From positions 136,461-190,354 of the forward strand of contig VMGX01000001.1 of assembly GCA_007376805.1 (NCBI GenBank): 53,894 nt of DNA, given 5' to 3'. The notes beneath the pieces were generated by a model. That model did not search any database, was not told where the DNA came from, and saw only the letters and a list, made by a program, of their open reading frames with translations. Made by a program: the position numbers and the translations under genes. Origin of the DNA: Parcubacteria group bacterium Athens0714_16 (lineage in GTDB: Bacteria; Patescibacteriota; Minisyncoccia; Phycocordibacterales; 21-14-all-36-13). How positions within the stretch are numbered: position 1 is the stretch's first letter; each line of letters starts with the position of its first letter. Below, in pieces: positions 2,612 through 44,562 of the stretch.

Positions 2612-3871
2612 ATGACTAATTCTATTGAAATAAAAAACATAGGGAAAAAATACGATATCACGCATCAGCGGGGTAGTTATGTTTCATTGAGAGATGTAAT
2701 AACAAATATATTAAAAAACCCATTTAAGCACGCTAAACATAAGGTTAAAAAAGTTTTAGGAAAAATAGAAAAAGAAGAATTTTGGGCACTTAAAGACATT
2801 AATTTAACAATAAAAAAAGGTGAGATAATCGGAATTATAGGAGCAAATGGCGCAGGAAAATCTACTTTACTAAAACTTCTTTCTAAAATCACCCCTCCTA
2901 CAACGGGAGAAATAAAAATAGATGGAAAAGTTGCTTCTCTCTTAGAGGTCGGGACTGGGTTCCACCCAGAACTTACGGGAAGAGAAAACATTTTTCTTAA
3001 TGGGGCCATCCTTGGTATGACAAAGAAAGAAATTGTTGAACGATTTGATAACATTGTTGAATTTTCTGGAGTAAAACAATTTTTGGACACGCCAGTAAAA
3101 AGATACTCGTCTGGAATGTATGTTCGTCTTGCATTTGCGGTTGCCGCACATATGGAACCGGATATTTTAGTTGTTGATGAAGTTTTGGCTGTGGGAGACG
3201 CAGAATTTCAAAAAAAATCTCTCGGAAAATTGGATGAGGTCTCAAAAACAGAGGGGCGCACTATTTTATTTGTGAGCCACAATATGGTAGCAATACAAAA
3301 ACTCTGCAAAAAAACCATCTTGCTTGAAGAAGGTAAAATCAAAATGGTTGGGGAGACGAAAGAAGTGATTGATTTTTATTTTCATCGTCAAGGCGAAACG
3401 AGTAAATTACCACTTGAGGAAAGAAAAGACAGAAAGGGTAGCGGGAATGTACGATTTACTAAATGTGAACTTCTTACCCCATCTCTCGAAAACCGTGTTC
3501 TCAAACTTAAATTATCATACAAAAATAAAACAGAAAATACGTACAACAATATAAAAATATCCGTAGACATAAAAAATACCAACGGAGAACATCTTGCTAA
3601 CATAACGAATAATGTTCTTGACCAAAAAATTAATATCCAGAAGGGCGTCGGGAGTATCTTTCTCAAAATTATAAATTTCAATCTTGAAAGCGGAGAATAT
3701 ACGTTCAGTCTTTTCATGGCAACTGACAAAATGAACTCGGAAATACTAGATTCTGTGGAAGATGTGCTTATGTTTAATATTGATAATGGTGGTTTTTATA
3801 ATACCGGCAAACTACCACCAATAAGAAGCAAGGTTTTTTTTGATTTTATATTTAATAATAACAAAAATTAA
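2612..3871 (+). CDS. ABC exporter ATP-binding protein with extra C-terminal domain (Wzt/TagH-like)
   Basis: Walker A GANGAGKST, signature YSSGMYVRL and Walker B ILVVDEVLAVGD. About 170 aa follow the nucleotide-binding domain, the position where Wzt proteins carry a glycan-cap-binding domain. Confidence 0.85.
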   Translation: MTNSIEIKNIGKKYDITHQRGSYVSLRDVITNILKNPFKHAKHKVKKVLGKIEKEEFWALKDINLTIKKGEIIGIIGANGAGKSTLLKLLSKITPPTTGEIKIDGKVASLLEVGTGFHPELTGRENIFLNGAILGMTKKEIVERFDNIVEFSGVKQFLDTPVKRYSSGMYVRLAFAVAAHMEPDILVVDEVLAVGDAEFQKKSLGKLDEVSKTEGRTILFVSHNMVAIQKLCKKTILLEEGKIKMVGETKEVIDFYFHRQGETSKLPLEERKDRKGSGNVRFTKCELLTPSLENRVLKLKLSYKNKTENTYNNIKISVDIKNTNGEHLANITNNVLDQKINIQKGVGSIFLKIINFNLESGEYTFSLFMATDKMNSEILDSVEDVLMFNIDNGGFYNTGKLPPIRSKVFFDFIFNNNKN

Positions 3872-27640: not shown

Positions 27641-29143
27641 TTAAAAAATTTCTATCTCGTTTGATATTTTTTGTATCTCATCTTTTTCTTTATCATATGG
27701 TAGTATCGGCTCTTTTTTAACAAAAATAAATCCTATAATTGATAACAAAACCATTGATGACAATCCGACAAGCCATTTAAAAACATCCCCGTTTTGGGCT
27801 GTTTTTGGGGCTAAATCTGAATTAACCACAGTTGCCAAGGAATCCATACTCTCCGTGTTTTTTACCTCATTTTGGGCTTCCTGTGTGTCGGAAATCTCTT
27901 TATTTATAGCATAATTAGACGCTTTAAGCACTTCGGTTAAATCATTTGATTTCGCGACCGTTCCATTGAGAAAAACCTTAGTTACACTTTCACCAAAAGA
28001 TGTAGCCAAACTACCGTTCGGATAAAGTAAGCTAATTTTTGATTGGTTCGTTATATTTAAATTTGTGACACTTTTTGGAAAAATAATTTTTTCGTTCGGA
28101 AGTATTACTGTATTTTTTTGAAGTGTAAAAAAATTATTATCAGCCTGCAAACGCCACCATGATAAATTTAATTCTCTGTTCGTTCTGTTGTATAGTTCTA
28201 TAAAATTTTTATCTGCATCTCTACCAACATTTGATATAACAATATCAGCAGGAAGTGCTGTAACATTTATTCTGTCGGTTACAGAATATTCACCAGAGCT
28301 AGCTTCTAAAAAAACTACATACTTACCGGGATAATTATAGGAGTGCATTATCTTTTTACCTTTTTGAAAGGAACCATCACCAAAATTCCATGTAAATAAT
28401 GCATTTTCAATCGGTTCATCATTAAGACCGATGGCTTTCGCATCAAAAATTGTATCTGCGCCGACAATAACCGTTCTATCTTCGCCTGCATAGGCAAAAA
28501 TCTGTGGATCAAAAGCAGGAGATGTAAAATTTTGTTGTTGTGTTGTTTGAGAATTGTTTGTGACTGTTGTTGTCGCTTGTCCTGAAGGACTTGGGGGCGT
28601 AGATGAAGGTACCGAAGTAATTTCTGAACTTCCCAATGTTGGGTTTCCCGCTTTCCATCCAGAATTTGTTTTTTGTAATGTGTTTCCGTCGCCGGCTCCC
28701 CCCATTTCTTTATTATATAAAACTTTATCTATTTGATTATTTTCTTTATCTAAAATCAAAATTTCTCCTGATATATTTTTCAAACTCATGACAGTGTCTA
28801 TAACTGTACCCGTATAACTTAAATTTTCTGGAATAAATAAATTTGCATCGCCGGAAAGAACCGCATATTCATTTGATTTTAAAATTAATGAACCTCTTCC
28901 ACCATTTTTTGGTGGTTCATTTAATATATGATTAGTAACTCCATCGCCATCATTAAATTTCCAACCAGCTAAATCAACCTGCGCGTTTCCAGAATTAAAA
29001 ATTTCAACCCATTCCCTCCCTGTATCAGAACCTTCAGCTAAGTCATACATTATTTCAGTAATAACAATCTGCCCATGTGCGAAGATGGGCAGAAAAATAA
29101 ATATAATTAAAGCCGTTTTTAGAAAGTTACAACAAGTTTTCAT
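27641..29143 (-). CDS. Secreted/membrane-anchored protein with two lamin-tail domains (LTD) and a PKD domain
   Basis: Signal-like N-terminus. LTD blocks IVITEIMYDLAEGSDTGREWVEIFNSGNAQVDLAGWKF and IVISNVGRDADKNFIELYNRTNRELNLSWWRL. PKD block FTWNFGDGSFQKGKKIMHSYNYPGKYVV. C-terminal TM helix. The ATG is at 29143; the ORF-track start at 29146 is a GTG. Confidence 0.7.
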   Translation of the reverse strand: MKTCCNFLKTALIIFIFLPIFAHGQIVITEIMYDLAEGSDTGREWVEIFNSGNAQVDLAGWKFNDGDGVTNHILNEPPKNGGRGSLILKSNEYAVLSGDANLFIPENLSYTGTVIDTVMSLKNISGEILILDKENNQIDKVLYNKEMGGAGDGNTLQKTNSGWKAGNPTLGSSEITSVPSSTPPSPSGQATTTVTNNSQTTQQQNFTSPAFDPQIFAYAGEDRTVIVGADTIFDAKAIGLNDEPIENALFTWNFGDGSFQKGKKIMHSYNYPGKYVVFLEASSGEYSVTDRINVTALPADIVISNVGRDADKNFIELYNRTNRELNLSWWRLQADNNFFTLQKNTVILPNEKIIFPKSVTNLNITNQSKISLLYPNGSLATSFGESVTKVFLNGTVAKSNDLTEVLKASNYAINKEISDTQEAQNEVKNTESMDSLATVVNSDLAPKTAQNGDVFKWLVGLSSMVLLSIIGFIFVKKEPILPYDKEKDEIQKISNEIEIF

Positions 29144-29252
29144 CACTTAAATTTTAGCATTAGAAATAAATTTTTAAAAATTCCAATAGTGGAAAATTTC
29201 TATTAATTTTATGAAATGAGTATTTTCGTATTTAATTTTTAATTTTCGGTTT

Positions 29253-29397
29253 TTACAGTTAACTGTAATTTTTGACTTATTTATTTTAAATTTTTCGTTC
29301 TTAATTCTCACTCTTTACAGTTAACTGTAATTTTTAATCCTTCACCTCTTATATATCATTCTTTTTATTTTGTTCTACTTTTTACAGTTAACTGTAA
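29253..29397. promoter_or_regulatory. Array of three perfect 16-bp palindromes TTACAGTTAACTGTAA (candidate operators)
   Basis: Perfect copies at 29253-29268, 29315-29330 and 29382-29397, each flanked by T-tracts. They lie between the stop of the TrpR-like gene and the start of the LTD/PKD gene. Confidence 0.6.
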
Positions 29398-29438
29398 AAA
29401 GTTGTTCCTAAAAAAATAAAAAAGTACTACGTCTCATT

Positions 29439-29876
29439 TTATTTCGGCTCTGTAGCTTTATAAAAACCCTTCCACCTTCCTTTTCCTACCTTGGGTGGCA
29501 TCCTCATTTCTAAAAGAGTTTCAATATATGACCAGAATGGGTTATCTTTTATTTTCTTATTTATAAGTGAACCTTTCGGTATTTGATCTATTATAAAACC
29601 ATATTCTCCATCATCCATCTTTTCCGAAATTTTATATATTGTTGTCATGCTTAGTTTGAGTGTTTTTTGTATAACAAAAAAATCATATCCGTACTTTATC
29701 ATTACTATAACAGCAAACCTTTTCGCTATCATAATTTTTTCAGATTCAGTAAACAGTCCGTCTAAAAACATTTTTGTTTTCCCGGGATTGTCCAGTTTGG
29801 AAATATAATTTGTTAATTGGTCACAAATCGCCACAAAAACTTTGTCCTTTAATTTTTTCTTTGAAATATTTGTCAT
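29439..29876 (-). CDS. TrpR/YerC-YecD-like helix-turn-helix DNA-binding protein
   Basis: The core FTESEKIMIAKRFAVIVMIKYGYDFFVIQKTLKLSMTTIYKISEKMDDGEYG matches the TrpR-related pattern (T..E......R..V..M...G.....I......S..TI). Confidence 0.65.
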   Translation of the reverse strand: MTNISKKKLKDKVFVAICDQLTNYISKLDNPGKTKMFLDGLFTESEKIMIAKRFAVIVMIKYGYDFFVIQKTLKLSMTTIYKISEKMDDGEYGFIIDQIPKGSLINKKIKDNPFWSYIETLLEMRMPPKVGKGRWKGFYKATEPK

Positions 29877-29903
29877 ATTTTATACCAGTTTTTAAATAAA
29901 TTT

Positions 29904-30192
29904 TTACAGTTAACTGTAATTTTGGGCTTATTTTATTTTAATTCTTAATTTTTAATTCTTGATTCTTTTTTACAGTTAACTGTAATTTTTGTCCCTCGGT
30001 TTTTGATTTTTGGTTTCTTTATTTTTTTATTTCTTTGTTTTTTGCTCTTGGTTTTTGATTTTCTTTTTTACAGTTAACTATAATTTTGCAATCTATTTAT
30101 TTTTAATTCTTAGTTTTTTACGCTTAACTGTGATTTTTAACTCTCCGAGTTTATCTATGGTTTTTGATTTTCTTTTTTACAGTTAACTGTAA
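29904..30192. promoter_or_regulatory. Array of five copies of the TTACAGTTAACTGTAA palindrome (three perfect, two degenerate)
   Basis: Perfect copies at 29904-29919, 29970-29985 and 30177-30192. One mismatch at 30068-30083 (TTACAGTTAACTATAA). Three mismatches at 30118-30133 (TTACGCTTAACTGTGA). The T-rich spacers share sub-repeats: GGTTTTTGATTTTC(T)n precedes the copies at 30068 and 30177, and TTTTAATTCTT precedes those at 29970 and 30118. Confidence 0.6.
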
Positions 30193-30235
30193 AATTTCTG
30201 CATGAGAAAAAGATTGAATGTTAGAATAATGCTTA

Positions 30236-33200
30236 TTATTCTCCATAAACCCAATTCAAAATTGAATAATTAGAGTGTGGAGCTGGAGATAAGTTGGTTT
30301 TAAAATAATTTCTAAAGTCATTAATATCATTACTACCCTGTCTAATTTCATATATTGCAATAAATATTCTATCCTCATTATTCAAACTTAATACACCCGC
30401 ATCATTTTCAGGACTTTCAACAATTGTCGTTATGTGATTCTTAAGAGAATGACCATTAACGATGATTGAATTGCCGACTTCTCCTTTATAGATATCTCCG
30501 TATGTGGAAACAGTCCTAAAACTTGGAAAAATGTATGTGCATACTCCCTGTGATGGTTTGTATGTCATTCCCTCTTGGAATGTATTAACATAAGGTCCGC
30601 AGTAATAACCAATTCCACTACTGGAAACATTCGCACTGTTTCTTGTTAGTGGAGTTCCATTTATTAAACCATTATTTGCGTTTGTGCCATTCTTTTTATA
30701 TGTATTATTTGAATTCCAATTTGTACTGATTGTTCCACTTATGTCCGGATTTATTCTTTCCATTGTTTTGTAATCAGCCGATGCAGTTCCTGCACACCAA
30801 CCACCTCCACAATCTACAAGATTTGGAGTTTTATCAACGGTCGTTGTCGCCGTTCCGGTTGAATAAACGAGAGATAGAACTTCGCCCGAATTCCCAAGTC
30901 CAGAACCGCTCAAGCCACTAAATGGCGTAACCAAATTTGCAACAACGTTAACAGTTGTATCATCTGTTCTTTCAATTAAATAAAATGAATTTGCTAAAAT
31001 TGTTCCTGAAAGATTTATATACGGAGTTCCGTCTTCTGCAAAAATTACAAATTCAGACATTTTAATTTCCTGCGAACTTCTGTTATATAATTCAATCCAC
31101 TCATCGTTTTCAAGAGTAGCTGAGGTCCCCGCCCAAGCTATTTCATTTATTATTACGGGCATATTTATTGTTGTCTTTACTTGTTTTACATCTGAATATC
31201 TTTCATTGCCCGCCCTATCAACCGCTCTCACTTTAATTTCACTCTGTGAATTTTCTGGAATTGTTATTTCCGTTGTGGTTGCAGTAGTGGTTGTTGCTAA
31301 AACATTATTTAAATAAACTTCATAGTAAGAAATATTTTGTTCGTTGGAATTCCATACTGGATTTATTTTTGTGGTTGGGATTAAACACTCGCTCCCATTT
31401 GTACTTATTGAATGTCCGCATTCGGTTATACTAAATGCACTAAAAATCGGACTTTGTGTATCAACAAAAACTACAAACTCTGTGACGGTAGATGTTGAAT
31501 AACTTGTATTACTTGAAACAAAATTTATTGTTGTTGTCCCTTCTTGAAAACCAGAAAGCGACATTGACCAGTTTTCATTTCCATCGGCTGTGGTTGTAGA
31601 TGTTGAAAAATCGTTTGATATTAAAAGTGTTGACGACGCAATTCCTGAAAATGTAATTGAATTTGTCGCGGACGTGTATGGATTTACTGCTGGTGTTGAA
31701 ATAATAGGTTTTGGTAGATTTTGGACTATAACTCTTCTCGTGATTTCGTTTGCCGTGAGTCCTCCTGAATCCATAACATTATATGAAATTGTGTATGTTC
31801 CGACGGTTGCTGTATCGACTGTTCCTGTTTTAACAATGTTAGCTGTTATACCACCATCTTCTGTATCTGAAGCTGTGGCTCCAGCGTCTGTGTATGTATC
31901 ACCTTTTGTAATTGTCATTTCTGCACTGCCAGTAAGTGTGATCGTGGGATATGTATTTTGTCTTGAATTACCACCTCCGGCTCCTCCGCCACCAAATCCG
32001 GGACCATATTTTGGAGTAATTGGTGCTGGTTCCTGAACATTATATTTAATAGTGCTGTCCGGTATGTTTGGTTGTTGATTTGTTTCCGGTGTTGTTGTAA
32101 TTGTAGTTTGTATTTCATCTACAACAGAATTATTTTGTTCTTGATTATTACTTTCTTGATTTATTACAACATTATTATTAACAACAGGTTGGACCGTGGA
32201 ATAAACTTCATTGCTTTTTTGCTTCGTTGCTCCGTTGCTTTCTTGAGTAACCCCGACACTAGCCGACTGATACAATCCAGCCCCAAATAATTTCTTTATT
32301 GAGTCCCTGTTTTTATTGAACAAAGCCATTGTATCCTCTTCTTCTCTCACTTTTTCAAAGAAAAGTGAAATAACTCCTGACGCATGAAGAACTGCCTGTT
32401 TTGAAAGATGGGACCAGTTGTCAGAAAGAATTAAATCTCCGTCGTCATCTAAAAAATATATGTTTGTATCTTTGTTTGAGAAAAAAGAAATTTTATTTTC
32501 TATACCTATTACTCTGGAAACATCACCTTTTAAATTTTTATATCCAAATGTAATCCCTGTATCTAAATCCTTCTTTTCAAAATCTATTTTTGGTTCAATA
32601 TATTTTTTATCATTTATAGTATCTCCACTAAAAAAATTGTTGTTTGAATAATTAGCCAAACTAGAAAAATAATCAAAAAGTGAAGAAAGTTTTTTTGACT
32701 TTTCTCCACTTTTTACTAATTCTCCTGAAATATCACTTATTGTTTCACTATCATATTTTGTTGTATATGTTTCATAATAATCTCCATTCAAATGCTGGTC
32801 ATCTCTCGTGTGAGCCGGGACAGCCATATCTTCAACCAAATGAAGAATATTGCCTAATGTTTCTAGGCCTCTTTGTTTGTCTCCATTAACATATTCGTAA
32901 ACAGCCCTATCAAAAGAATAATCTGAATTTGAGCTAAAAAAAGACATCAGTTTAGATAAAAGAGCATATTGTGGACTTAACATTGCCTGTGCTTTTGTAT
33001 TTTCAGCCCATTTATATGCTGGAAGAAATTCACCCCACAATCCTTTGTTGTATATTGGGTCATAAAAATGATAAACAGATCTATAAAATGGCTCGTCTTC
33101 TTTTACACTCCCTAAAAGAATTTTTTCTTTATCTTCGTTTGAAATTTTCTTATTATTAATTTCGTTATAGAATTCTATAGTTTCGTTTGTTATTGCCTTG

Positions 33201-33292
33201 TGTGTTACTCCATTATATGAATAAACACCGTTTATAAAAACGAAATTTGCTAAAAATATTATTATCAGAATTACAAACTTTCTATTTTCCAT
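30236..33292 (-). CDS. Giant secreted protein: Zn-dependent phospholipase C / S1-P1 nuclease-superfamily domain + Ig-like (DUF5011/HYR-type) + LTD
   Basis: N-terminal signal/TM. GVTHKAIT ... YHFYDP ... HLVEDMAVPAHTRDD (the His/Asp Zn-ligand pattern of the PLC/P1 fold). Gly-rich linker. PTITLTGSAEMTITKGDTYTDAGATASDTEDGG...VGTYTISYNV Ig-like repeat. LTD block VIINEIAWAGTSATLENDEWIELYNRSSQEI. Confidence 0.7.
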   Translation of the reverse strand: MENRKFVILIIIFLANFVFINGVYSYNGVTHKAITNETIEFYNEINNKKISNEDKEKILLGSVKEDEPFYRSVYHFYDPIYNKGLWGEFLPAYKWAENTKAQAMLSPQYALLSKLMSFFSSNSDYSFDRAVYEYVNGDKQRGLETLGNILHLVEDMAVPAHTRDDQHLNGDYYETYTTKYDSETISDISGELVKSGEKSKKLSSLFDYFSSLANYSNNNFFSGDTINDKKYIEPKIDFEKKDLDTGITFGYKNLKGDVSRVIGIENKISFFSNKDTNIYFLDDDGDLILSDNWSHLSKQAVLHASGVISLFFEKVREEEDTMALFNKNRDSIKKLFGAGLYQSASVGVTQESNGATKQKSNEVYSTVQPVVNNNVVINQESNNQEQNNSVVDEIQTTITTTPETNQQPNIPDSTIKYNVQEPAPITPKYGPGFGGGGAGGGNSRQNTYPTITLTGSAEMTITKGDTYTDAGATASDTEDGGITANIVKTGTVDTATVGTYTISYNVMDSGGLTANEITRRVIVQNLPKPIISTPAVNPYTSATNSITFSGIASSTLLISNDFSTSTTTADGNENWSMSLSGFQEGTTTINFVSSNTSYSTSTVTEFVVFVDTQSPIFSAFSITECGHSISTNGSECLIPTTKINPVWNSNEQNISYYEVYLNNVLATTTTATTTEITIPENSQSEIKVRAVDRAGNERYSDVKQVKTTINMPVIINEIAWAGTSATLENDEWIELYNRSSQEIKMSEFVIFAEDGTPYINLSGTILANSFYLIERTDDTTVNVVANLVTPFSGLSGSGLGNSGEVLSLVYSTGTATTTVDKTPNLVDCGGGWCAGTASADYKTMERINPDISGTISTNWNSNNTYKKNGTNANNGLINGTPLTRNSANVSSSGIGYYCGPYVNTFQEGMTYKPSQGVCTYIFPSFRTVSTYGDIYKGEVGNSIIVNGHSLKNHITTIVESPENDAGVLSLNNEDRIFIAIYEIRQGSNDINDFRNYFKTNLSPAPHSNYSILNWVYGE

Positions 33293-34016: not shown

Positions 34017-34286
34017 TTATTTTTCAATTTTTAAAATTCCTCGTAAAACATCTTCTGGAATTTCTTTTTGTTCAGTGTCTTTTGGTATTTCTGTTTTAGC
34101 AGTCGCTTCAGTTGGTTTGTTTTGAACAGCGTCAATAGAAACTGGTGGATTTTCTTTTACTGCTTCTTTTTCGAATAATTCTTTCTCTTTTTTATAATCC
34201 TGTTCAATTGTGTTTTGTGTAGTTTCTGTTGTATTAGTATTTGTTTCTGTGTTTGTAATACTCTCATCAATAGTTAGTATTTCCAT
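34017..34286 (-). CDS. Hypothetical acidic Thr/Glu-rich ORF, or a frameshifted continuation of the upstream tail
   Basis: Low-complexity ORF overlapping the end of the 617-aa gene in another frame. Candidate Met codons at 34346, 34301, 34295 and 34286 all lie inside the overlap. Confidence 0.3.
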   Translation of the reverse strand: MEILTIDESITNTETNTNTTETTQNTIEQDYKKEKELFEKEAVKENPPVSIDAVQNKPTEATAKTEIPKDTEQKEIPEDVLRGILKIEK

Positions 34287-36120
34287 TTGTTCCATTACCA
34301 TTAACACCGCCGGAAGCCAAAGCTTCGCCGTTCTTTTTAGTTTCACTTAAAATTTCACTCAACGCCTCTCTCAACGCGAAAACATTTTCTTCGGACATTT
34401 TTTTCTTCCTTTCAACTGGTTTTTTTGCATCTTCGGCTGGTTTCAAATAATTAAGCGCTATCGCCTTTCTAAATTCTTCTTCGTTGCTTTGTGTTTTGAA
34501 TGGTTTATGAAAATTATTCCCCTGAAAACCATCTCGACGTGTATTATTTCGTTTAAAATCATTTCTTTCTATTGGGTTTCTATTTTCGGACTTATTTTCA
34601 ATTTTGGGTTCAACTTTATTTTCTATTTTAGTTTCTGGCTTAACTTCCGACTTAGTTTCACTTTTATAATTAGGAAATTTTCCTCTTTGAAGATTATTAA
34701 CTGGTACAGAATTTTGAGTTTTGCTGTTTACAAAACCATTTTTATTACTTTCAGTTGTTTTATTATTTACAACTTCACCAACATTTTTACTAGCCCCGTT
34801 GGTTGAGCTACTTTTTTTCTCTGATTTGTTTGTATTTGTGTGCCATTCAATAATGTATTTTTCAACTTCAGCACGTGGCCTAGCAAATCTTTTTCTTGAG
34901 TTTTCAATTATTCTTTCTTTGTAAGAAACGGGTGGCGCTGGTATTGGTGGTAATGTTCTTGCAGAAAATGGCTGTGAGCTTATGCCATCTATCAACAACT
35001 TAATATAAATCTGCGCAAACCCAAGATTAACCAAATCTTCTGGCGTAAACTGCGGGGCAAACTCTTTTTCCAATTCATTTGCGTCATTTGCACCTATACG
35101 AAAAACTATCATAGTCCCTACGTTACCAAACACAGCTGCTTTTACTTCATCTTGCATTTGTTCTATGTACTGATGTGCAATATTTAAATTTAATTTATAT
35201 TTTCTCGCTTCTGACAAAATGTCTGCGAACGATTCATTGGCAAATGATTGAAATTCGTCAACGTGAAGATAAAAATTTGGAAGTTTTCTTAATTCTTCTT
35301 GTGAAGCATCTGCACGAGACATTGATGCCAAATAAATTTTTGTTATTAACATACCGCCCAAAAGATTTGCGTTTGCTTCACCCACTCTTCCCTTTGATAG
35401 GTTTATAATTACTATTTTTTTATTATCTTCTATATCTCTAATATCAAAACTCGAATGTGGTTGCCCTATTATATTTCTTATAAGTGGATTAGAAATAAAC
35501 TGACCAACTTTGTTTTGTATAGCGGCACCAGCTTCTTGCATATATCTTTCACCATATTTTGCAAATTCATCCTGCCAGAATGCTTTTACAGAAACATCTG
35601 TGACATTATCAACGACCATTTTTCTATAATCTTTGTCAGCTAACATTCTATTTACTCCCAAAAGAGTAGCATCTGGATATTCCAAAAGTGCTAAAAGAAT
35701 GTTATTCAAAATATATTCCATTCTCGCAGACCATGCATCAAGCCAAATCTTTTTAAATGCACTCATCAGGCCGTTGGCAACAAGATGTCTTTTATCAATA
35801 CCAACATCCTCCATCACATTGAATGAAACCGGATATTCCAAATCGAAAGGAGCAAAATAAAGAACATCATCAATTCTGCTTTCTGGAACATAATCAAGAA
35901 GTAGTTCTGCTGATTTTCCGTGCGGGTCGACAAAAGCCATTCCATTACCATTCTGGATATCTTGAATCGCCATATTTTCTAGTAGAGTAGATTTTCCTGT
36001 TCCTGTTTTTCCTATGACATAAACGTGTCTTATTCTGTCTGCCTCTTTTATGCCAAATTTAGTTTTGTTATTTCTGTAATCCGTTTCAGCAAAATATGTA
36101 ATTTTATCTCCATTTGCCAT
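34267..36120 (-). CDS. Soluble P-loop NTPase of the VirD4/TraG/TraD coupling-protein (HerA/FtsK) type with a long low-complexity C-terminal tail
   Basis: Walker A VIGKTGTGKSTLL, then AFVDPHGKS, and Walker B FYLHVDEFQSF. No N-terminal TM segments. The tail carries Lys/Glu/Asn-rich repeats (KSETKSEVKPETKIENKVEPKIENKSENR). TATAAT lies at 36128-36133, 7 nt before the ATG. Confidence 0.7.
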   Translation of the reverse strand: MANGDKITYFAETDYRNNKTKFGIKEADRIRHVYVIGKTGTGKSTLLENMAIQDIQNGNGMAFVDPHGKSAELLLDYVPESRIDDVLYFAPFDLEYPVSFNVMEDVGIDKRHLVANGLMSAFKKIWLDAWSARMEYILNNILLALLEYPDATLLGVNRMLADKDYRKMVVDNVTDVSVKAFWQDEFAKYGERYMQEAGAAIQNKVGQFISNPLIRNIIGQPHSSFDIRDIEDNKKIVIINLSKGRVGEANANLLGGMLITKIYLASMSRADASQEELRKLPNFYLHVDEFQSFANESFADILSEARKYKLNLNIAHQYIEQMQDEVKAAVFGNVGTMIVFRIGANDANELEKEFAPQFTPEDLVNLGFAQIYIKLLIDGISSQPFSARTLPPIPAPPVSYKERIIENSRKRFARPRAEVEKYIIEWHTNTNKSEKKSSSTNGASKNVGEVVNNKTTESNKNGFVNSKTQNSVPVNNLQRGKFPNYKSETKSEVKPETKIENKVEPKIENKSENRNPIERNDFKRNNTRRDGFQGNNFHKPFKTQSNEEEFRKAIALNYLKPAEDAKKPVERKKKMSEENVFALREALSEILSETKKNGEALASGGVNGNGTNGNTNY

Positions 36121-42034: not shown

Positions 42035-42108
42035 TGCGCGTGCCAGGACTCGAACCTGGGACCTCAGTCTTATCAGGACTGCGCTCTAACCACCTGAGCT
42101 ACACGCGC
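42035..42108 (-). tRNA. tRNA-Ile (anticodon GAU)
   Basis: Minus-strand sequence GCGCGTG-TA-GCTC-AGGTGGTTA-GAGC-G-CAGTC-CTGATAA-GACTG-AGGTC-CCAGG-TTCGAGT-CCTGG-CACGCGC-A folds as a canonical cloverleaf. CCA is not encoded. Confidence 0.92.
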
Positions 42109-42233: not shown

Positions 42234-42656
42234 GATTACTTCTACTGTTCACTCTACTCCACGATAACAGAATAGAGTGGATACTTATTTTTTATTTAAA
42301 CACAAAAACCACCATTACAGCGGTTTCTAATTTTTTCTAATTTCATTAGAAATTAGAAATTAGTTATTGGACATTTCAAATTTAAAACTTCGTTTTAAAT
42401 TTGGTAATTACCCTCTCTTTTGTTTCGTTCAACTATCAGTTTCGTATATCTGACCAAACGGATGTACTTTAGGATAGGACATCAGTACCCTTTCTGTTTG
42501 TATGTTTGTCCACTTAGAGCGGAAAACACAGAAAATCAACCCTTTAATTTTATCTCCTTGAGAGAGATAAAAGTTTTTTTTTAAAATAATCCACGACCAC
42601 CTTCCGGTAGCCGTACCTTGTTACGACTTACTCCCTGTCACCGAATTTACCTTAGG

Positions 42657-42762
42657 CCCAGCACCACTTTTCTAAACTTTTCGTTAAACGATAGCTGTAT
42701 ATAAAAATTTTTTAAAAATTAAAAAAATTATATTAGCTTGCGTTTCGAAAAGTGGTGCTGGG
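42657..42762 (-). other. AT-rich expansion at the tip of 16S helix 44
   Basis: A perfect 16-bp closing stem (CCCAGCACCACTTTTC / GAAAAGTGGTGCTGGG) encloses about 74 nt of very AT-rich sequence. Confidence 0.7.
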
Positions 42763-42835
42763 ACTTCGGGTACCCCCGGCTCCCTTGAGTTGACGGGCGG
42801 TGAGTACAAGGCTCGAGAACGTATTCACCGCAGTA

Positions 42836-42871
<36 letters not shown>

Positions 42872-43024
42872 AGGTCGAGTTGCAGACCTCAATCCGAACT
42901 AGGACCGATTTTTAGGATTGGCTCAGGATTGCTCCGTCGCGACCTATTGTATCGGCCATTGTATTACGTGTGTAGCCCAGGGCATCAAAGGGACATGCTG
43001 ACCTGGCGTCATCCTCTCCTTCCT

Positions 43025-43225
43025 CCCAGCCCCAAAAGTACTTCGCTTCGCTAGTACTTAAAATTTAAAATTAAAAAATCAAAGTTTAAAGTTGTCATGT
43101 CCGCCGAAGGCGGACAAACTATTTTGATTGTAAATTTTTCAAAAAAAATTTACTCAACAATTTTGCATTTTGAGATTTACATTTTGCATTTAAGTATTTA
43201 CGAAGTAAATACGCTTGGGGCTGGG
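43025..43225 (-). other. Insertion of about 173 nt in the 16S helix 40 loop (E. coli ~1165)
   Basis: GAGACTGCCCAGCCCCAA ... TTGGGGCTGGGAGGAAGG brackets AT-rich sequence with one GC hairpin (GTCCGCC-GAAG-GCGGAC, 43099-43115). The equivalent E. coli loop is only a few nt. Confidence 0.75.
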
Positions 43226-43561
43226 CAGTCTCGTCTGAAATTTATAACAGACAACAAGGGTTGCGTTCGTTTCCCTACTTAAAGGAACAGCTCAAGCCAC
43301 GAACTGACGACGGCCATGCATCACCTGCCTATTCGTTTAGATTTTCTGTTTCCAGAAAAACATAAAATAGGTTTCAAGCCCTGGTGAGGTTCTTCGGTTA
43401 GTATCGAATTAAACCACATAATCCACCGCTTGTGCGAGCCCCCGTCTATTTCTTTGAGTTTTAACCTTGCGATCGTACTACCCAGGCGGTTCTCTTAATG
43501 CGTTAGCTACGCCTCCCAGAGGGTCGATACTCCGGAAAGCTAGAGAACAACGTTTACGGCG

Positions 43562-43592
<31 letters not shown>

Positions 43593-44140
43593 CCCCACGC
43601 TTTCGTGTTTCAGTGTCAGGAAATGTGCTAGTTTATTGCCTTCGCTTTTGGTGTTCCCCATAATATCAACGGATTTCACCCCTACACTATGAGTTCCATA
43701 AACCCTTCACACCCTCTAGTTGTACCGTTTCTCTTGCGTCTCTTCGGTTAAGCCGAAGGTTTTGACAAAAGACTAATACAACCACCTACACACCCTTTAC
43801 GCCCAATAATTCCGGATAACGCTTGGGGCCTCTGTATTACCGCTCCTGCTGGCACAGAGTTAGGAGCCCCTTATTCATGAGGTAACGTCAATAATTTCCT
43901 CCCTCATAAAAGATCTTTACGTCCCTAAGGACTTCATCAATCACGCGATGTCGCTCCGTCAGGCTTTCGCCCATTGCGGAAGATTCTCGACTGCTGCCAC
44001 CCGTAGGTGTATGGACCGTGTCGCAGTTCCACCGGTGGAGGTCAGGCTCTCACCTCTCCTAGACGTCATAGCCTTGGTAAGCTTTTACCTTACCAACTAG
44101 CTGATATCCCGCAGGCCGATCCCAAAGCGATAAATCTTTA

Positions 44141-44193
44141 CTGAATTCTGCTTTTTAAATTTTTAAATAAAAAATCCAAAAAGCAGAATTCAG
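44141..44193 (-). other. Extended hairpin in the 16S V2 region (helix 10)
   Basis: A perfect 16-bp stem (CTGAATTCTGCTTTTT / AAAAAGCAGAATTCAG) with an AT-only loop, at a position where most 16S have a hairpin of about 12 nt. Confidence 0.65.
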
Positions 44194-44562
44194 ACCATCA
44201 GGTATTATCCCGCCTTTCGACGGGTTATCCCTGACTTTGGGGGTCGTTCCTACGTGTTACTACCTCGTTTGCCGTGGGTCTAAACCCACTCGACTTGCAT
44301 GCCTAATCCACATCGCCAGCGTTCATCCTGAGCTAGAATCAAACTCTAATTTAAATACCTTGCGAAATTGGGCAAGCCCAAAATTCCAAGATAAAGTTGA
44401 ACGAAACAAAAGAATTGATAATTTCCGTCCGAGACGGATCCGCCCCTGGCGGACAATTTTCTTGCTTCAAAATATTTCTAAAAAATAGACAGGTTTCTAT
44501 ATTCTTATTTCAAGGTTCTCATACTTCGGGCAACAAAAAAGCCACCTTTCAGTAAGGATGTA

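Follow-up and report, generated by a model that had tools for sequence, protein, structure and literature searches.

Palindromes bracketing the genes of a TrpR/HisR-type protein subfamily of Patescibacteria as predicted operators

In a stretch of 53,894 nucleotides from Parcubacteria group bacterium Athens0714_16 (the whole of it is called the window here), the gene for a 145-aa DNA-binding protein with a TrpR fold lies between two arrays of a 16-bp palindrome, TTACAGTTAACTGTAA. The gene (29439..29876, minus strand, ATG at 29876 and stop at 29439) was assigned by Pfam, by a profile match to Protein Data Bank (PDB) structures and by an AlphaFold2 model. The question raised by this locus is whether the palindromes are the sites read by the adjacent protein and, if so, why they stand on both sides of its gene. 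The answer considered probable is that the protein represents a TrpR/HisR-type subfamily found across the candidate phyla radiation (CPR), the genes of which are bracketed by their own predicted operators, with the repressor bound among its sites and repressing its own synthesis.

With up to 3 mismatches allowed, TTACAGTTAACTGTAA was found 8 times in the window, always inside 29253–30192, and zero further matches were present in the rest of the 53,894 bp, while the mean over 100 dinucleotide-preserving shuffles was 0.65 matches, with at most 3 in any shuffle. For comparison, DNA was fetched around relatives of the protein at decreasing identity (related loci are numbered with the prefix L, and identities are given relative to the window protein unless stated otherwise). 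A core was defined in 13 lineages, the proteins of which are 31–68% identical to the window protein and to one another, and perfect palindromes bracket the gene upstream and downstream in all 13. Using each lineage's own core with up to 3 mismatches, all matches fell within about 400 bp of the gene, with sites on both sides in every lineage, and no core match was found beyond this distance in about 130 kb of related loci. Perfect palindromes of at least 16 bp occurred at 3.23 per kb within 400 bp of the gene ends, compared with 0.077 per kb elsewhere in the same loci (about 42-fold), and those of at least 20 bp at 2.29 and 0.046 per kb, respectively. At least one perfect palindrome of 16 bp or more was present at the gene ends in 18/19 loci.

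The cores change from lineage to lineage within a common framework, C-R-R-T-W|W-A-Y-Y-G, with an A/T-only centre TWWA. In the half-site, C at −5 and T at −2 are invariant in 13/13 lineages, positions −4 and −3 are R and position −1 is W. The distance between half-sites follows the distance between proteins, with a Mantel r of 0.53 that was reached by 4 of 10,000 permutations and is inflated by shared ancestry. Since specific bases are kept in otherwise unalignable intergenic DNA at 31–45% protein identity, the palindromes are argued to be cognate sites, and the comparative evidence that each is the predicted site of the adjacent TrpR-like protein is strong. Conserved, co-varying palindromes next to the gene also fit the expected binding of a palindromic operator of about 20 bp by an intertwined TrpR-family dimer. 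The sequence-only reading of this DNA had put forward an autoregulated multi-operator switch and had proposed looking for co-occurrence of palindrome and regulator in related genomes. This co-occurrence was checked and holds in 13/13 lineages, with a core that varies with the protein, so that the operator and autoregulation idea is supported at the level of predicted binding.

The protein scored 36.7 bits against the Pfam family Trp_repressor (PF01371, cut-off 27) over residues 19–90, which places it in this family, and 25.6 bits against the YerC/YecD model TIGR02531, below the cut-off of 42.2. A profile made from 72 family sequences matched PDB entries 3KOR, 3G1C and 3FRW with E-values from 4e-7 to 2e-6 over residues 14 to 103, approximately. 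The AlphaFold2 model has a predicted local distance difference test score of about 90 over residues 1–100 and about 50 over the last 40. In a Foldseek search with this model, the best 30 PDB matches were all TrpR-like, including E. coli TrpR, with target-normalised template modelling (TM) scores of 0.57–0.78. The predicted structure shows the all-helical TrpR fold with a helix-turn-helix formed by helices D and E. Conserved features include the N-terminus MTNISK, the stretch EKIMIAKRF, the helix-turn-helix with the recognition helix SMTTIYKI and the C-terminal MPPKVGKGRWK. The last of these belongs to a family-specific extension of about 40 aa, which ends in the consensus MPPxG(K/R)GRWK. In the 72-sequence alignment, the extension has a nearly invariant motif for which Pfam holds no model (W...L...G-M-P-P-x-G-x-G-R-W), and the RGR-like core of this motif appears to resemble an AT-hook. 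The recognition helix S-M-T-T-I-Y-K presumably corresponds to TrpR G78–R84 (G-I-A-T-I-T-R), with the equivalent of Thr81 kept, in a register read by hand from the 3KOR alignment and the E. coli TrpR sequence, not from a residue-by-residue alignment tool. R52, invariant in the 72 sequences, is likewise assumed to correspond to TrpR Arg54 by this hand alignment, which gives no ligand; in the known members, DNA binding depends on an amino-acid co-repressor, tryptophan for TrpR and histidine for HisR.

An exhaustive HMMER search returned 740 clusters (50% identity) at E ≤ 1e-3 and 144 at E ≤ 1e-10, nearly all of 130–160 aa, and a word-indexed profile search returned 508 clusters (90% identity) at E ≤ 1e-5. 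Those relatives that carry a name in their sources are called 'hypothetical protein', 'uncharacterized protein YerC' or 'Trp family transcriptional regulator', and the organisms, where named, are Patescibacteria, Parcubacteria, Nomurabacteria, Saccharibacteria, Yanofskybacteria and Kaiserbacteria. No relatives were found in viral contigs or PHROGs. Judged by sequence, the protein is a member of a large TrpR/HisR (PF01371) subfamily that is confined to Patescibacteria (CPR) where the organism is named. Within PF01371 it presumably works like TrpR and HisR, yet is neither HisR/YerC proper nor TrpR proper.

The closest relatives (L001–L006 and L009, 92–95% identity) carry the window's palindrome unchanged both upstream and downstream of the gene, in differing numbers. 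The upstream and downstream copies are 5+3 in the window, 2+4 in L001, 2+3 in L009 and at least 1+5 in L006, and L006 has, relative to L001, one extra 59-bp unit (palindrome and spacer) that arose by a clean tandem duplication. In L001, a 92% strain, the upstream gap (L001:4816–4956) contains a (GAAAAAT)n microsatellite, together with further short tandem repeats rich in A, where the window has three palindrome units. Many contigs (among L003–L008 and L012) begin 30–140 nt upstream of the regulator ATG, inside or at the palindrome array, which suggests that short-read assembly of metagenomes is interrupted here by the repeats.

In the orthologue of 67% identity (L007, L008 and L012), the LTD/PKD gene that follows the regulator in the window and an inositol-phosphatase gene still follow, and this is the lowest regulator identity down to which the LTD/PKD synteny is kept. 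These loci contain no TTACAGTTAACTGTAA; instead, TGTCCAGTTAACTGGACA is found upstream and downstream, with the centre kept and the flanks symmetrically changed, giving the core GTCCAGTTAACTGGAC on both sides. At lower identity, the cores are TTCCAGTTAACTGGAA in L021 (43%; 1 upstream, 2 downstream), CCCCAGTTAACTGGGG in L145 (38%; 2 upstream, 1 downstream) and GTACAGTTAACTGTAC in L150 (35%), where the upstream palindrome ends 3 nt from the ATG (the core 9 nt) and the downstream copy overlaps the stop codon. Cores on both sides of the gene are also found in L010, L011 and L013 (36–39%; TTACGGTTAACCGTAA), L022 (35%; TTTCGGTTAACCGAAA), L018 from Nomurabacteria (37%; GTACGATTAATCGTAC) and L148 (38%; CATCGATATATCGATG). 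L014 from Saccharibacteria (33%) has ATACGATTAATCGTAT in 3 upstream copies and 1 downstream, and L146 (36%) has TACGATATATCGTA in 3 copies on each side. The 3+3 arrays of the latter (L146:2073–2964) take up the intergenic DNA that separates the regulator from a 689-aa gene and from the gene of a P-type cation ATPase; therefore, array expansion is not unique to the window lineage. CGGTTAACCG and CGATTAATCG are heterologous cores of the family. L015 (34%, partial match) carries TTATGATATATCATAA in 2 upstream copies and 1 downstream, L016 (31%) a single 46-bp palindrome with a differing centre (TCGA) 194 nt downstream, and no flanking palindrome was present in L017 (23%).

Elsewhere the bracket is found in other neighbourhoods, namely with tatD/metG, with ligA/gatC and beside a P-type ATPase. 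Within the major clade, the regulator gene has an antisense position between metG and tatD, with tatD divergent and metG convergent to it. This position is common to proteins 49–75% identical to one another. The loci of this largest clade are L018, L019, L022–L024, L150 and L151, also L013 and probably L010/L011, and their metG and tatD genes are co-directional. From the gene order, the regulator looks like an insertion into a metG-tatD pair, which is adjacent in Bacillus subtilis in the form of metS-yabD.

In the window, the regulator gene and both its neighbours are on the minus strand. The upstream intergenic region (29877..30235, minus strand, 359 bp) is A-rich and of low complexity, and its 5 units consist of a palindrome and a 34–82-nt spacer, with sub-repeats common to the spacers. 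Its first copy (30177..30192) is perfect, lies 43 nt past the stop of the 1018-aa neighbour and extends to the 20-bp palindrome TTTTACAGTTAACTGTAAAA. It is followed by a degenerate copy with 3 mismatches (30118..30133, TTACGCTTAACTGTGA), one with 1 mismatch (30068..30083, TTACAGTTAACTATAA) and two perfect ones (29970..29985 and 29904..29919). The core of the last, promoter-proximal copy ends 27 nt from the regulator ATG, and its placement and the sequence following it are kept in L001, L006 and L009. The downstream intergenic region (29144..29438, minus strand) consists of 3 palindrome units, all perfect, and then a conserved stretch of about 110 nt. The first copy after the regulator stop (29382..29397, 42 nt downstream) extends to a perfect 26-bp palindrome, ACTTTTTACAGTTAACTGTAAAAAGT, with a predicted RNA hairpin of −11.6 kcal/mol, the second is at 29315..29330, and the last (29253..29268) lies about 110 nt ahead of the ATG of the LTD/PKD gene. 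The conserved stretch ends in an extended −10-like element, TGCTAAAAT, 7 nt from this ATG.

This anatomy agrees with the sequence-only reading in its copy count, coordinates and split into 6 perfect copies and two with 1 and 3 mismatches. Its spacings of 62, 67, 66, 98, 50 and 59 bp are correct as start-to-start distances, and the 3 and 5 copies filling the two gaps were confirmed by the gene coordinates. The plus-strand T-tracts it described are real as well: on the sense strand, the A content is 55% in the upstream gap and 48% in the downstream gap, runs of A4 or longer number 23 and 14 compared with 2 and 5 T-runs, and nearly all copies stand in the context AAAA(A)-TTACAGTTAACTGTAA-AAA(A). 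Curved DNA through phased A-tracts was ruled out by the absence of a 10–11-bp periodicity.

Among known systems, HisR (YerC/YecD; 3KOR, 3G1C and 3FRW) gives the best sequence and fold matches. The sequence-only reading held that no DNA target is established for YerC, which is outdated, since YerC is HisR and has validated 20-bp palindromic operators that were found by the same comparative logic and then confirmed in vitro (PMC9413887). The operators of HisR and TrpR are both 20-bp palindromes and often autoregulatory, with cacTTTAnnnnnnTAAAgtg as the HisR consensus and TGTAcTnGTnnACnAgTACA as the TrpR motif (PMC9413887). The window protein resembles HisR as a small all-helical helix-turn-helix protein with predicted palindromic operators of about 20 bp, a lineage-specific consensus and a frequent site before its own gene. 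In contrast to HisR, it is about 40 aa longer with the conserved W...MPPxGxGRWK tail, its family core C-R-R-T-W|W-A-Y-Y-G is unlike cacTTTAnnnnnnTAAAgtg, no his genes lie near the regulator, so that the linkage of a HisR-type operator to genes of histidine biosynthesis or transport is absent, and sites are also found downstream of the gene and in arrays.

E. coli TrpR has the same fold (target-normalised TM 0.57–0.73) at an identity of only about 10–18%. The resemblance of the palindrome to the trp operator, also noted from the sequence alone, holds for the central GTnnAC common to TGTAcTnGTnnACnAgTACA, which the centre GTTAAC of the window palindrome matches, and fails for the TAC block, which is 1 bp closer to the centre. 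The L150 core GTACAGTTAACTGTAC reads GTAC-A-GTTAAC-T-GTAC, which is what the trp operator becomes if each GTAC is shifted 1 bp towards the centre. Besides this half-site spacing, off by 1 bp per side, TrpR differs in that its own gene has no operator bracket and in its tryptophan co-repressor, for which the window protein gives no evidence.

Repressors that loop between auxiliary operators, such as those of lac O1/O2/O3, gal OE/OI and lambda OL/OR, are a further comparison, since identical sites several hundred bp apart flank a transcription unit and could be bridged by a multimer. Here, unlike in those systems, the loop would enclose the whole gene of the repressor itself, there are up to 5+3 sites, and only a dimer is predicted.

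From the fold and family of the protein, the repeat anatomy, the conserved association of gene and sites and their co-variation, all directly established, we infer binding, a dimer, repression, any ligand and a role for the downstream copies. The protein would bind TTACAGTTAACTGTAA as a symmetric dimer, and across the family the half-site C-R-R-T-W would be read, with the A/T-only TWWA centre, at sites bracketing the protein's own gene. Bound on or against the core promoter at the proximal upstream site, it would repress its own synthesis, and in divergent arrangements the neighbouring gene may also be repressed. The downstream sites might cooperate with the upstream ones by looping the gene of about 0.45–0.55 kb, or alternatively act as protein-reinforced boundaries or terminators. 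The arrays of 5 and 3 in the window lineage would have grown from single upstream and downstream sites as units of about 50–100 bp were duplicated in tandem.

Autoregulation is likely because the upstream copy is promoter-proximal. The proximal core ends 27–28 nt from the ATG in the window clade, with the sequence between them conserved, and 6–18 nt from it in the tatD/metG clade. In the major clade, the upstream palindrome ends 0–17 nt from the ATG, which leaves no room for a Shine-Dalgarno sequence. A TAnnnT hexamer stands exactly at −12..−7 from the ATG, in the right arm of the upstream palindrome, in L150 and L018 (TACTAT), L011 (TAATAT) and L013 (TAAGAT), and L021 has a perfect TATAAT at −12..−7, downstream of its palindrome. 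This placement fits a predicted operator over the promoter and leaderless mRNAs. In the major clade, the promoter covered by the repressor might also serve the divergent tatD.

Several points weigh against this proposal. The protein–DNA interaction is predicted wholly from comparison, and the co-variation statistics are confounded by the shared ancestry mentioned above. In the window, a scan with a promoter consensus did not rise above shuffled sequences (9 hits versus 5.5 ± 2.4), and gave no convincing position for the −10 element of the regulator. Simple autorepressors do not usually have a site downstream of their gene, and autorepression alone gives no explanation for the ones here. The distances between the proximal upstream and downstream sites (436–576 bp, computed by hand) share no common helical phase and are uninformative. 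The copies in relatives are often perfect palindromes of 28–50 bp, with outer arms that differ between copies and stay symmetric. The footprint of a dimer does not account for such symmetric long arms, which point to a hairpin or cruciform function or to mutational perfecting. In addition, a terminator scan on both strands scored the downstream copy of L150 as a bidirectional intrinsic terminator.

The wider switch suggested from the sequence alone, with both of the flanking surface-protein genes under control, is not supported by the comparison, in which the sites stay with the regulator gene in unrelated neighbourhoods. The upstream neighbour (30236..33292, minus strand), a 1018-aa surface protein with Bact_surface_Ig-like and LTD domains, ends, not starts, at the array, which its 3' end adjoins. 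The downstream neighbour (27641..29143, minus strand), a secreted or surface protein of about 500 aa with LTD and PKD domain matches, has the last copy about 110 nt upstream and its own conserved TGCTAAAAT element at the start, although some influence of the sites on its expression is possible. Its start is probably the ATG at 29143, conserved in L001 and L009, and not the GTG at 29146 of the open reading frame list, and TGCTAAAAT ending 7 nt upstream of this ATG suggests a leaderless or very short-leader mRNA.

In a rather unlikely alternative, palindrome, gene and palindrome form a self-contained module recurring in CPR and the protein-bound palindromes are boundary elements (roadblock terminators or insulators) instead of a classical operator. 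They might then be recognised as cruciforms or hairpins, and the very long perfect arms would be functional and not by-products of mutation. Such a module would act in the major clade as a gate on transcription reading through from metG into tatD, and in the window lineage the array length, which varies between strains, would adjust expression around the genes for surface proteins.

The lengths of the perfect palindromes are 22, 50 and 32 bp in L022, 40, 34 and 28 bp in L145 and 38 bp in L013. Perfect palindromes of 38–50 bp are unusual in bacterial chromosomes; those around the core are at L022:3555–3604, L145:2664–2703 and L013:2962–2999, with outer arms unique to each copy, and L014:3413–3454 is a 42-bp palindrome around the family core with one mismatched pair. 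Two readings of these features are considered. In one, the downstream copies in relatives may double as terminators. In the other, the long arms would be long-lived, protein-bound quasipalindromes perfected and extended by template switching during replication, given that template switching that perfects quasipalindromes is a documented mutational process (PMC7202029) and is stimulated by protein–DNA complexes (PMC6357072).

The palindromes bracketing the gene could be plain RNA or DNA hairpins (bidirectional terminators, insulators or mRNA-stabilising stem-loops) that the protein does not recognise, which we consider improbable. The symmetric but variable outer arms, the very long perfect arms of L022 and the L150 copy that passes the terminator scan speak for it, with folding energies of −42 kcal/mol for the 50-bp copy of L022, −27 for L013 and −18 for L150. 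A metagenome-wide scan for TTACRGTTAACYGTAA points the same way: among the at least 120 matches obtained, many of those listed lie inside generic long hairpins of unrelated organisms. However, hairpins are indifferent to sequence, yet C(−5), T(−2) and TWWA are invariant across proteins of 31–45% identity, the density of such palindromes in the remainder of these loci is about 40 times lower, and the upstream copies lie in divergent promoter regions, where terminators are needless. For the window's own copies the hairpin reading is weak, because they are short, mostly of only −4.4 kcal/mol, with A-tracts and not U-tracts on the sense strand, and none was called a terminator. The terminator scan gave 0 terminator-like sites in the window, and the G+C stem with U-tract of an intrinsic terminator was found only in the downstream copy of L150.

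In the same scan, all but one of the matches listed for TTACRGTTAACYGTAA were single occurrences in unrelated organisms, none of those listed came with a family gene, even with an unfiltered hidden Markov model search at E < 0.5, and the only double match listed was a duplication inside an initiation factor IF-2 gene. Since isolated 16-mers arise by chance or in generic hairpins, the 16-mer alone is undiagnostic, and its clustering next to the gene is what is diagnostic.

The bracketed gene could also be a selfish or formerly mobile cassette of IS200/RAYT-like architecture (RAYT, tyrosine transposase associated with repetitive extragenic palindromic, REP, sequences), with the palindromes as its ends. 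This is highly unlikely, even though the bracketing is always tight, the sites overlap start and stop codons in L013, L018, L148 and L150, the neighbourhoods differ between clades and the major-clade gene is antisense between co-directional metG and tatD. A small gene flanked by palindromes is what the locus has in common with REP/RAYT and IS200/IS605 elements. It differs from them in that the protein has the TrpR fold only and no catalytic domain (no HUH/Y1, DDE or recombinase domain), each locus holds a single copy, and the position is vertically stable, with synteny kept for tatD/metG at 49–75% mutual identity and for LTD/PKD at 67%. The palindromes are not dispersed over the DNA covered, the 53.9 kb of the window and about 130 kb from related loci, and the lack of relatives in viral contigs and PHROGs also speaks against mobility.

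The repeats flank the gene of a putative binding protein within A/T-tracts, which is superficially parC-like, and the sequence-only reading had offered a centromere or iteron array as its alternative. A centromere- or origin-like nucleoprotein site is nevertheless most improbable. Neither in the window nor in any family locus is a ParA/ParM-type nucleoside triphosphatase, dnaA or rep gene adjacent, the repeats are palindromes and not the direct iterons of parC/ParR systems, the cumulative GC skew declines evenly across the region and shows no inflection, the A-tracts have no 10–11-bp phasing, and most family members have a single site on each side of the gene. An array for guide RNAs or defence, of the CRISPR or TIGR stem-loop type that is common in CPR, is suggested only by the regular palindromes that surround the gene of a small protein in this CPR genome and is scarcely credible, since the neighbouring protein has a TrpR fold and no Nop-domain Tas or Cas effector was found, the units are 50–98 bp with an invariant palindrome and shared low-complexity A-rich spacers and not 36-nt dual-spacer units with variable guides, and the region gave no Rfam match and the regulator and its two neighbours no PADLOC match.

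Two further candidates were dropped. The conserved bases of integron attC sites lie at the outer ends and not at the centre, and integron cassettes carry varied genes; a restriction-modification controller reading the HpaI site GTTAAC was discarded, as no restriction-modification genes are adjacent in any locus.

With the operator reading preferred, one locus provides a candidate for a further target. On a 10.7-kb groundwater contig from Hainich (L071), among those listed in the TTACRGTTAACYGTAA scan, a solitary TTACAGTTAACTGTAA at 3603–3618 lies within the 24-bp palindrome AATTTTACAGTTAACTGTAAAATT, in an A-rich gap between pheT and the gene of a 501-aa membrane protein with a Spermine_synth domain, 29 nt before the ATG of the latter. 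The tetranucleotide profile of L071 correlates with that of the window at r = 0.989, and those of the conspecific loci L001 and L009 at 0.991–0.992. Because the copy is at the same distance class as the proximal site of the regulator, this spermidine-synthase-domain gene is a candidate member of the regulon. On the same contig, the phenylalanyl-tRNA synthetase beta chain (L071:3680–6061) has an NlpC/P60 domain between B3_4 and B5.

Full-text literature searches returned no paper describing a regulator–operator pair in CPR/Patescibacteria, and searches on TrpR-like regulators or palindromes in CPR found none either. Gene bracketing, array expansion and strain-variable copy number are apparently undescribed for TrpR/HisR regulators, as is the subfamily itself. 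CPR bacteria are mostly uncultivated, and the family offers a widespread, small and easily purified protein with a predicted site adjacent in every lineage examined, so that a pairing of regulator and site in CPR is directly testable. In addition, the CAG, CGG or CGA cores and the TTAA or ATAT centres form a natural specificity series for how recognition helices of the TrpR fold read DNA. A practical consequence is that the arrays seem to disrupt metagenome assemblies at the regulator locus.

Other features of the window were noted in passing. A 617-aa ATPase of the TrwB/VirD4/HerA type (34267–36120, minus strand; PADLOC mad8 match, E 1e-14) is encoded two genes upstream of the surface-protein genes, and L009 is arranged likewise. 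The 16S rRNA gene (42579–44354, minus strand) spans 1776 nt compared with a model of 1533 nt, which implies an insertion of about 240 nt, and after it come only tRNA-Ile (42035–42108) and then the gene for an alanine racemase; no 23S gene adjoins it.

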